IMG/VR virus record: IMGVR_UViG_2711768069_000002
Reading direction: 5' to 3' (one strand)
DNA from: a virus
Lineage: Duplodnaviria > Heunggongvirae > Uroviricota > Caudoviricetes
DNA length: 6,030 nucleotides
Part shown: in pieces, positions 123 to 445 of the stretch
Layout of the letters: each line of letters begins with the position of its first letter
Numbering within the stretch: the stretch's first letter is position 1
Position numbers and translations under genes: made by a program
Notes under the pieces: generated by a model
What the model saw: only the letters and a program-made list of their open reading frames with translations
Database searches by the model: none
What the model was told of the DNA's origin: nothing

Positions 123-395
123 ATGTCCAGAAAAACAGAATTTAAAGGCACCGCAGCTTCTCGCCGTAGAGCTCGTCGCGCAAACCTGCAAAGTCAGGAG
201 TCGATTAGCTCCGACAAGCTACACAGGCCAACCCCTTCACGAGTGGTCTTGCAATGCAAGCGCAAACCAGCAATGAGAGCAGAAGTTATAACTCTGACAA
301 CGTTGACCAGAAAATATGAAGGTTCAACTTGTCTTCCAAACGTAGCCATTTACGCTGCAGGCTACCGGAAATCCAAACAACTGACGGCGAGGTGA
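123..395 (+). CDS. N: N-type transcription antitermination protein (90 aa) with N-terminal arginine-rich motif
   Basis: ATG at 123 preceded by GGGAGG (112-117). The product begins MSRKTEFKGTAASRRRARRANLQ, an arginine-rich motif of the kind found at the N-terminus of lambdoid N proteins. It sits first in the operon, upstream of cIII-kil-gam-bet-exo. The track ORF 51..395 has no RBS at its upstream ATG, so the internal start is preferred. Confidence 0.6.
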   Translation: MSRKTEFKGTAASRRRARRANLQSQESISSDKLHRPTPSRVVLQCKRKPAMRAEVITLTTLTRKYEGSTCLPNVAIYAAGYRKSKQLTAR

Positions 396-445
396 CTTGT
401 GTTGGTCGCCAGAAAATGAAATTAGGCAGCAAACCACTTATTTGA
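392..445 (+). pseudogene. Out-of-frame remnant encoding a lambda-N-like C-terminus (VTCVGRQKMKLGSKPLI)
   Basis: In the -1 frame relative to the N ORF, codons 392..442 read VTCVGRQKMKLGSKPLI then TGA (443-445). From memory this closely matches the C-terminal RNA-polymerase-binding end of lambda N (…ITCSGRQKIKGKSIPLI). It is not in frame with the upstream ORF, which stops at 393-395. Confidence 0.5.

Follow-up and report, generated by a model that had tools for sequence, protein, structure and literature searches.

In this lambdoid prophage, which resembles Shiga toxin phages, does the gene for the N antiterminator end where its reading frame stops, or has the gene been broken by a frameshift just before its natural end? 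In the window, by which we mean the whole stretch of 6,030 nucleotides that was analysed, the N open reading frame runs into a TGA codon, while the -1 frame, when read from position 392, gives VTCVGRQKMKLGSKPLI and then a second TGA at 443-445. An earlier note on this DNA had reported the open reading frame and the -1-frame tail, and its coordinates for both are exact. It took the tail for a lambda-N-like C-terminus and offered two explanations, namely a frameshifted N (through inactivation or an assembly error) or a recombination scar, and it left open whether the prophage can still antiterminate transcription from pL. The evidence presented here makes it very probable that the window carries a complete N gene of the P22/H-19B tail type, in the VT2-Sakai allele, followed by the dead 3' end of a 21-type N gene that was left there by a mosaic join.

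N is the first gene of the early-left operon and is located 3' of nutL and 5' of cIII, after which come the gam, bet and exo open reading frames (Table 1). The leader (1-122) is identical to that of phage VT2-Sakai, in which nutL is annotated over the spot occupied by the boxB-like hairpin. The boxA of VT2-Sakai (GCTCTTTAA) sits just 5' of the window, and both pL and boxA lie outside it. The start codon at 123 is the one annotated in VT2-Sakai and by PGAP.

Table 1. Coordinates of the features discussed in the text (positions in the window).
Feature	Position	Strand	Remarks
boxB-like hairpin of nutL	11..24	+	tggc-TGAAAA-gcca; read from the sequence, presumed function
Shine-Dalgarno sequence of N	112..117	+	GGGAGG, 5 nt before ATG 123
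N antiterminator gene, complete	123..395	+	90 aa, 273-nt CDS, start ATG 123, stop TGA 393-395
Arginine-rich motif region of N	147..197	+	GTAASRRRARRANLQSQ (translation); presumed boxB-binding part, RNA binding suggested by the family
Segment shared with Stx phages	330..1056	+	~98% identical to 933W, HK97 and other Stx phages; megablast and block alignment to 933W
C-terminal tail of N	333..392	+	LPNVAIYAAGYRKSKQLTAR; presumed RNA-polymerase-binding end, P22/H-19B-type N
Junction between P22-type N CDS and 21-type remnant	391..393	+	...GCGAGGT / GACTTGTG...; register comparison
Remnant, last 17 codons and stop of phage-21/HK542-type N	392..445	+	out of frame with N
Shine-Dalgarno sequence of the next gene	444..450	+	GAGGTGA, overlaps the stop codon of the remnant, as in phage 21
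Early-left open reading frame	454..924	+	156 aa, PHROG 1636, E = 1.4e-111, unknown function

The translation of the N open reading frame, MSRKTEFKGTAASRRRARRANLQSQESISSDKLHRPTPSRVVLQCKRKPAMRAEVITLTTLTRKYEGSTCLPNVAIYAAGYRKSKQLTAR, matches the Pfam family N_peptide (PF25694; E = 1.6e-31, 109.2 bits against a cut-off of 27.9) and PHROG 271. Residues 1-90 occupy positions 5-100 of the 100 positions of the Pfam profile, such that the end of the profile is the end of the open reading frame, and artificially appending the 17 tail residues to N brought no gain in the N_peptide match. The lambda-specific Pfam domain N36 found no match in the window's N. Moreover, the arginine-rich motif (GTAASRRRARRANLQ) aligns with those of the N proteins of 933W, P22 and phage 21, with R14 and R18 invariant. 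By its sequence, therefore, the protein belongs to the N antiterminator family and has the P22/H-19B type of tail. The same protein is found, 100% identical, in 6 IMG/VR loci. In an E. coli chromosome, this CDS is called intact by PGAP under the name "transcriptional antitermination N peptide" (WP_000088201.1), with no frameshift flag, and nothing is assigned to the 58-nt spacer after N.

The C-terminal tail is kept in all eight aligned N proteins of the P22/H-19B type, every one of which stops after TAR; L71, P72, V74, A75, Y77, A79, G80, R82, K85, T88, A89 and R90 are invariant in this set. The terminal motif LP.VA[IL]YAAG[YH]RKSKQ[LI]TAR, followed by a stop, closes the N proteins of P22 (gp24), HK629, SPN9CC and MG40, and nothing lambda-like comes after it: the DNA past the stop is unrelated and holds the end of sieB (P22, SPN9CC) or another gene (HK629, MG40). 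The earlier note had named such homologues as the finding that would make the frame-0 open reading frame a complete N. P22 gp24, on which the N_peptide family is centred, is 40% identical to the window's N overall; directly past its TAA stop lies the end of sieB, on the opposite strand, and there is no remnant. The N of lambda, in contrast, falls below the N_peptide threshold and matches only over its N-terminal half. Because homologues stop at the same TAR without an extra tail and the Pfam profile ends there, N is not truncated.

These observations bear directly on the possibility that N is a frameshifted pseudogene, or that an assembly error of one base near 385-392 hides a true protein of ~107 aa ending in ...GRQKMKLGSKPLI. 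Between 329 and 445 the -1 frame is indeed open, its last codons are those of a genuine N tail, and the summed length is near that of lambda N. However, the frame-0 tail is itself the conserved C-terminus of N proteins, at which the remnant-free phages named above also stop, and, 5' of 392, the -1 frame (..PEIQTTDGE) has no match among N proteins and is closed nine codons upstream of the stop in VT2-Sakai-type loci. Additionally, the same base count recurs in hundreds of independent assemblies, from phages and bacterial genomes, with no frameshift flag from PGAP. The agreement of 90 plus 17 codons with the ~107 aa of lambda N, to which the earlier note had pointed, is a coincidence, as the 127-aa N proteins of 933W and HK97 carry an identical remnant. 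A frameshifted or misassembled N is thus extremely unlikely. In terms of annotation, N should be entered as an intact protein of 90 aa and not as a frameshifted pseudogene, and re-examination at the level of the reads is unneeded.

What is known of a relative is consistent with a working protein. The N of phage H-19B, a 127-aa product, antiterminates in vivo and as a purified protein, and nut- and Nus-dependent readthrough of terminators has been shown for it (PMC3526286). Deletions in its C-terminal domain impair processive antitermination away from nut, whereas removal of residues 121-127 has little effect (PMC3526286). The numbering of the arginine-rich motif and the mutated residues of H-19B N fit the N of 933W, whose last 20 residues are identical to those of the window's N; HK97 has one I/L difference in this stretch. 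The N of the window is intact and presumably functional. Nothing in the window gives reason to doubt that the prophage can antiterminate from pL, and the doubt raised on this point was unfounded.

If N ends at its own stop codon, the tail in the -1 frame must come from somewhere else. Over 392-445 the window matches the in-frame 3' end of the N gene of HK542 at 54 of 54 nucleotides and 17 of 17 amino acids, and that of phage 21 (lambda imm21) at 53/54 nt and 16/17 aa; against residues 91-107 of lambda N the figures are 11/17 aa and 31/54 nt. An exact match of 54 nt to HK542 means that the likeness is not due to chance. The resemblance to lambda that had first drawn attention to the tail is therefore real, but the segment is far nearer to the phage-21/HK542 type. 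The recombination scar that the earlier note offered as its second explanation is supported in the same qualified way, in that the 3' end left behind is of the phage-21/HK542 type and not of lambda's own. The segment falls on positions 155-171 of the PHROG 271 profile. In N genes of the phage 21/HK542 type it is in frame and is translated as the end of N, whereas in the window it lies past the N stop and one base back from the N frame.

The point of transition was located by lining up the 3' ends of the N genes of twelve phages. Ends of the KQLTAR type (HK629 and P22) read ...GCG AGG TAA, and those of the 21 type read ...ATG GGT GTG ACT TGT GTT GGT CGC CAG..., whereas the window, 933W, HK97 and VT2-Sakai read ...GCG AG(G/A) TGA CTT GTG TTG GTC GCC AG... 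The references for the register were HK629 (...GCGAGGTAA) on one side and phage 21 and HK542 (...GGGTGTGACTTGTG) on the other. From the GT at 391-392 onwards the window equals the 21 type, and the G and A of its TGA stop are those of the old Val-Thr codons GTG ACT. In the 54 nt upstream of 392, the same register gives 13-16 matches, which is background, and local alignments of the upstream DNA are no better than those of shuffled sequences (116-453 of 500 shuffles score as high). Similarity thus jumps from background to near-identity within 2-3 nt, and we therefore favor a non-homologous join over an old frameshift in situ. Judged by these alignments, the segment 392-445 is a leftover of a 21-type N gene, and the whole is a lambdoid mosaic joint with a gene remnant.

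A history without recombination would require that the KQLTAR tail arose in situ, by an old frameshift of a 21/lambda-type N, and that the remnant is the 3' end of the very same gene. The remnant is placed exactly where the old reading frame would go on, and PHROG 271 sets the two tail types at adjacent profile positions, both of which agree with such an origin. However, frame-independent alignment found no similarity between KQLTAR-type and 21/lambda-type DNA upstream of the junction, hhalign of the two tail types returned a probability of 0.2%, and the switch from background to 100% identity is as abrupt as described above. In Salmonella phages, moreover, the DNA that follows KQLTAR tails is unrelated. 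We consider an origin in situ very improbable. A likeness between 21-type and KQLTAR-type DNA that had been picked out by eye (ATTTAC/GCAnGCnAC/GAAAT) was rejected as chance by local alignment against shuffles.

We propose that the coding sequence of a P22-type N was brought by non-homologous recombination into a genome that had an N of the 21 type, although the direction and mechanism of the exchange are conjectural. A join at the GTG ACT of the 21-type gene would supply a TGA in the incoming frame, leaving the new N with the ...TAR end that is natural to it. What remained of the old N, its last 17 codons, would then form a spacer between N and the next gene, and the end of this spacer, TTTGAGGTGA, would carry the ribosome-binding site of that gene. 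Following the stop codon of the remnant, GAGGTGAGATATG forms the ribosome-binding site and start of the open reading frame 454-924; in imm21 (phage 21) and mEp213, the genuine N stop is likewise followed by TTTGAGGTGAnATATG. Finally, the spacer, whose roles would all be passive and which forms no part of N, would provide ~50 bp of homology to other lambdoid phages, across which downstream modules may be exchanged. On this account the locus is a textbook-clean example of lambdoid mosaicism, wherein the C-terminus of the arriving N is preserved to the residue and the older gene supplies the stop codon.

Gene fragments at the mosaic joints of lambdoid phages are of a well-known kind and belong to the module model of Susskind and Botstein. 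Juhala and colleagues, in a comparative analysis of HK97 and HK022 from 2000, reportedly described lambdoid mosaic joints and gene remnants. The joint in the window shares with these the abrupt switch at a gene boundary and the short segment that flanks many modules, and there is no difference of principle. A paper describing this particular remnant was not found in the full-text literature that we searched. Nothing here is mechanistically new, and the same arrangement is already present in reference genomes sequenced in 1999-2000.

Could the remnant nevertheless be expressed? If ribosomes were programmed to slip into the -1 frame shortly before N ends, a minor isoform with both tails would result, and the -1 frame of the window is open for 21 codons before the N stop. 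However, as the earlier note had correctly observed, there is no slippery heptamer of the form X XXY YYZ, and this holds anywhere in the N open reading frame. No stable RNA fold that might stimulate slippage was detected downstream (370-470; z = -0.23 against shuffles). Moreover, the -1 frame of the commonest allele (VT2-Sakai type) meets a stop codon nine codons before N ends, 30% of the loci with this N lack the remnant, and the N of H-19B works as a 127-aa product alone. Programmed frameshifting is vanishingly unlikely on these grounds.

Translation could also restart at the overlap of the two frames. The first codon of the remnant overlaps the N stop (RTGA), reading ATGA in 27 and GTGA in 17 of the 47 distinct contexts, with GTGA in the window. 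Termination-reinitiation at this A/G-TGA would release a 17-aa, lambda-type, RNA-polymerase-binding peptide that acts in trans. The remnant open reading frame is intact in most loci, and a passage of PMC3526286 cites binding of RNA polymerase by residues 73-107 of lambda N, which would suit such a role. The alternation of ATG and GTG, however, is to be expected anyway, given that the first base of the remnant codon is the wobble base of the last Arg codon of N: the window has AGG there instead of the AGA of the VT2-Sakai type, and its remnant therefore starts with GTG instead of ATG. In addition, three of the 47 contexts have GTA as the first codon together with a TAA stop and thus no start codon, a 10-nt insertion disrupts the remnant frame at one locus, and the remnant is absent from 24 of 80 loci with this N. 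Deletion of residues 81-107 or 91-107 of lambda N has little effect (PMC3526286), and a free 17-mer is therefore unlikely to matter. We regard reinitiation as very unlikely and infer that the remnant is not translated.

The remnant has hardly decayed, and most loci are identical to in-frame copies. Its private point variants comprise three non-synonymous changes (G>D, S>I and L>S) and no synonymous one, while in-frame copies of the tail have five synonymous and seven non-synonymous variants, with few events in either set. The near-lack of decay, taken alone, could point to constraint on the remnant, but it is attributed to a recent origin and to continual exchange with in-frame copies. That the remnant is active, either as a reinitiated, free 17-residue ligand of RNA polymerase in trans in phages with a P22-type N or as a recombination linker that is actively kept, seems very improbable to us.

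The spread of the arrangement fits a dead remnant at a mosaic joint. The same layout, with the N stop followed by the remnant, is present in 933W, HK97 and VT2-Sakai. From position 330 on, megablast matches the window at ~98% identity to over 300 phage records (933W, Min27, HK97-like phages and Stx1 phages among them), and in 129 phage records the remnant is preceded by the KQLTAR frame. Among 5,426 complete E. coli genomes, 481 hold at least 80% of window positions 100-470. When IMG/VR was scanned with a degenerate form of the tail motif, the hits fell into three groups: N tails in frame (74; lambda, 21 and related types), remnants that follow a KQLTAR N stop (35) and other contexts (~20), including nun and other inserts.

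For an unbiased sample, 80 IMG/VR loci were taken by a single criterion, an N that is 97-100% identical to that of the window. A remnant of a lambda/21-type tail follows the stop in 56 of them, and the other 24 have sieB-type, HK629-type or other sequences there instead. Behind the 56 remnants lie at least five different downstream genes, and three alternative tail alleles share only the first ~25 nt. The remnant is thus common yet dispensable, and the DNA on its far side is freely exchanged, which is how a short homologous linker between modules should behave. This stub of 50 bp is common to phages with different types of N, and downstream modules are shuffled across it. It is present in medically important Stx phages (933W, VT2-Sakai), and annotation pipelines and comparisons based on open reading frames will keep meeting it.

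Among the closest known systems, the 90-aa N proteins of VT2-Sakai, Stx2 II, YYZ-2008 and 2851 are identical to that of the window at 88 of 90 residues (97.8%), and these phages have the same leader, the same stop and the same remnant (53/54 nt). The two N proteins differ by two conservative substitutions (E27 instead of A and I76 instead of L), and the gene downstream of the remnant differs from that of the window. In 933W and HK97, on the other hand, near-identical DNA (~98%) extends from 330 past the N stop and the remnant to include the next gene, whereas their N proteins, at 127 aa, are 37 residues longer, differ in the N-terminal two thirds and reach only 57% and 54% identity overall. 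A second mosaic boundary is therefore located at 330, inside N, with VT2-Sakai-type DNA upstream and 933W/HK97-type DNA from 330 on. N is modular in other phages as well: the N of HK629 joins a KQLTAR tail to the N-terminus of phage 21, and that of HK542 joins a 21 tail to the N-terminus of lambda.

Remnants of the same tail were also observed in other settings. In one group of IMG/VR loci (L017, L047, L073, L084, L085, L108, L119, L125 and L128) and in mEp235, nun, an exclusion gene of the HK022 type, occupies the position of N. It is followed by a terminator-like hairpin and then by a 21-type tail remnant that is predicted to be untranslated and is longer than that of the window, with ~31 codons from ..NRIYYSKPRSEMG; it reads ..NRIYYSKPRSEMGVTCVGRQKMKLGSKPLI up to its stop. 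In mEp235 the remnant lies ~70 nt beyond nun. HK022 itself was considered as an example and rejected, as it has IS903 at this place and no remnant.

In another group (L065 and its relatives L071, L074, L104, L113 and L114), a small open reading frame is inserted between a KQLTAR-like N, which ends in ..YRSMKSITAR, and the 21-tail remnant. Its product, MTSKQVSYKCYCPLCGRKF...HINDYH, has a zinc-finger-like CxxC...HxxxxH spacing, and on that basis the open reading frame could be a moron, that is, an extra gene inserted at the joint.

A third group (L162, L164, L179 and L213-L217) has a TAA as the N stop and a variant remnant, GTAACCTGCACTGTTCGCCAG. The variant reads GTA ACC TGC ACT GTT CGC CAG..., and its first three changes relative to the common remnant are synonymous in the frame of the tail. 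No in-frame donor of the GTAACCTGCACTGTT variant was found in IMG/VR, where the 21-mer occurs only behind a KQLTAR-type N and at the same junction. This variant is not easily explained by a history with a single join. There may have been an unsampled in-frame donor and a short patch exchange, or joins at this spot may have arisen more than once and been selected for an immediate stop.

Further features were noted downstream of the remnant. The open reading frame 454..924 is the equivalent of ST933Wp19 of 933W and gp45 of HK97, both of which are annotated as hypothetical, and no Pfam domain was found in it. At 1057-1084 of the window, 28 nt replace 429 nt of 933W (2228-2656 of its locus L001) that contain an ea10/ssb (DUF2528) gene; the replacement sits between a terminator-like hairpin (1029-1053) and cIII. 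The Rfam scan reported nothing in the N region, and its only hit was the lambda cIII thermoregulator element (RF01804, 1102-1160, 88.5 bits), which covers the start of cIII (MQYAIAGW...) inside the open reading frame 1055..1279. In the 5' region of gam (1346-1500), a T-run at ~1450 is longer by one T than in the annotated 138-aa gam open reading frame of lambda, and the first 40 gam codons are therefore out of frame with the 98-aa open reading frame 1467..1763 (MNAYYIQ...). As read from the window, only the short form of Gam can be made, in agreement with the 98-aa gam annotated in 933W.
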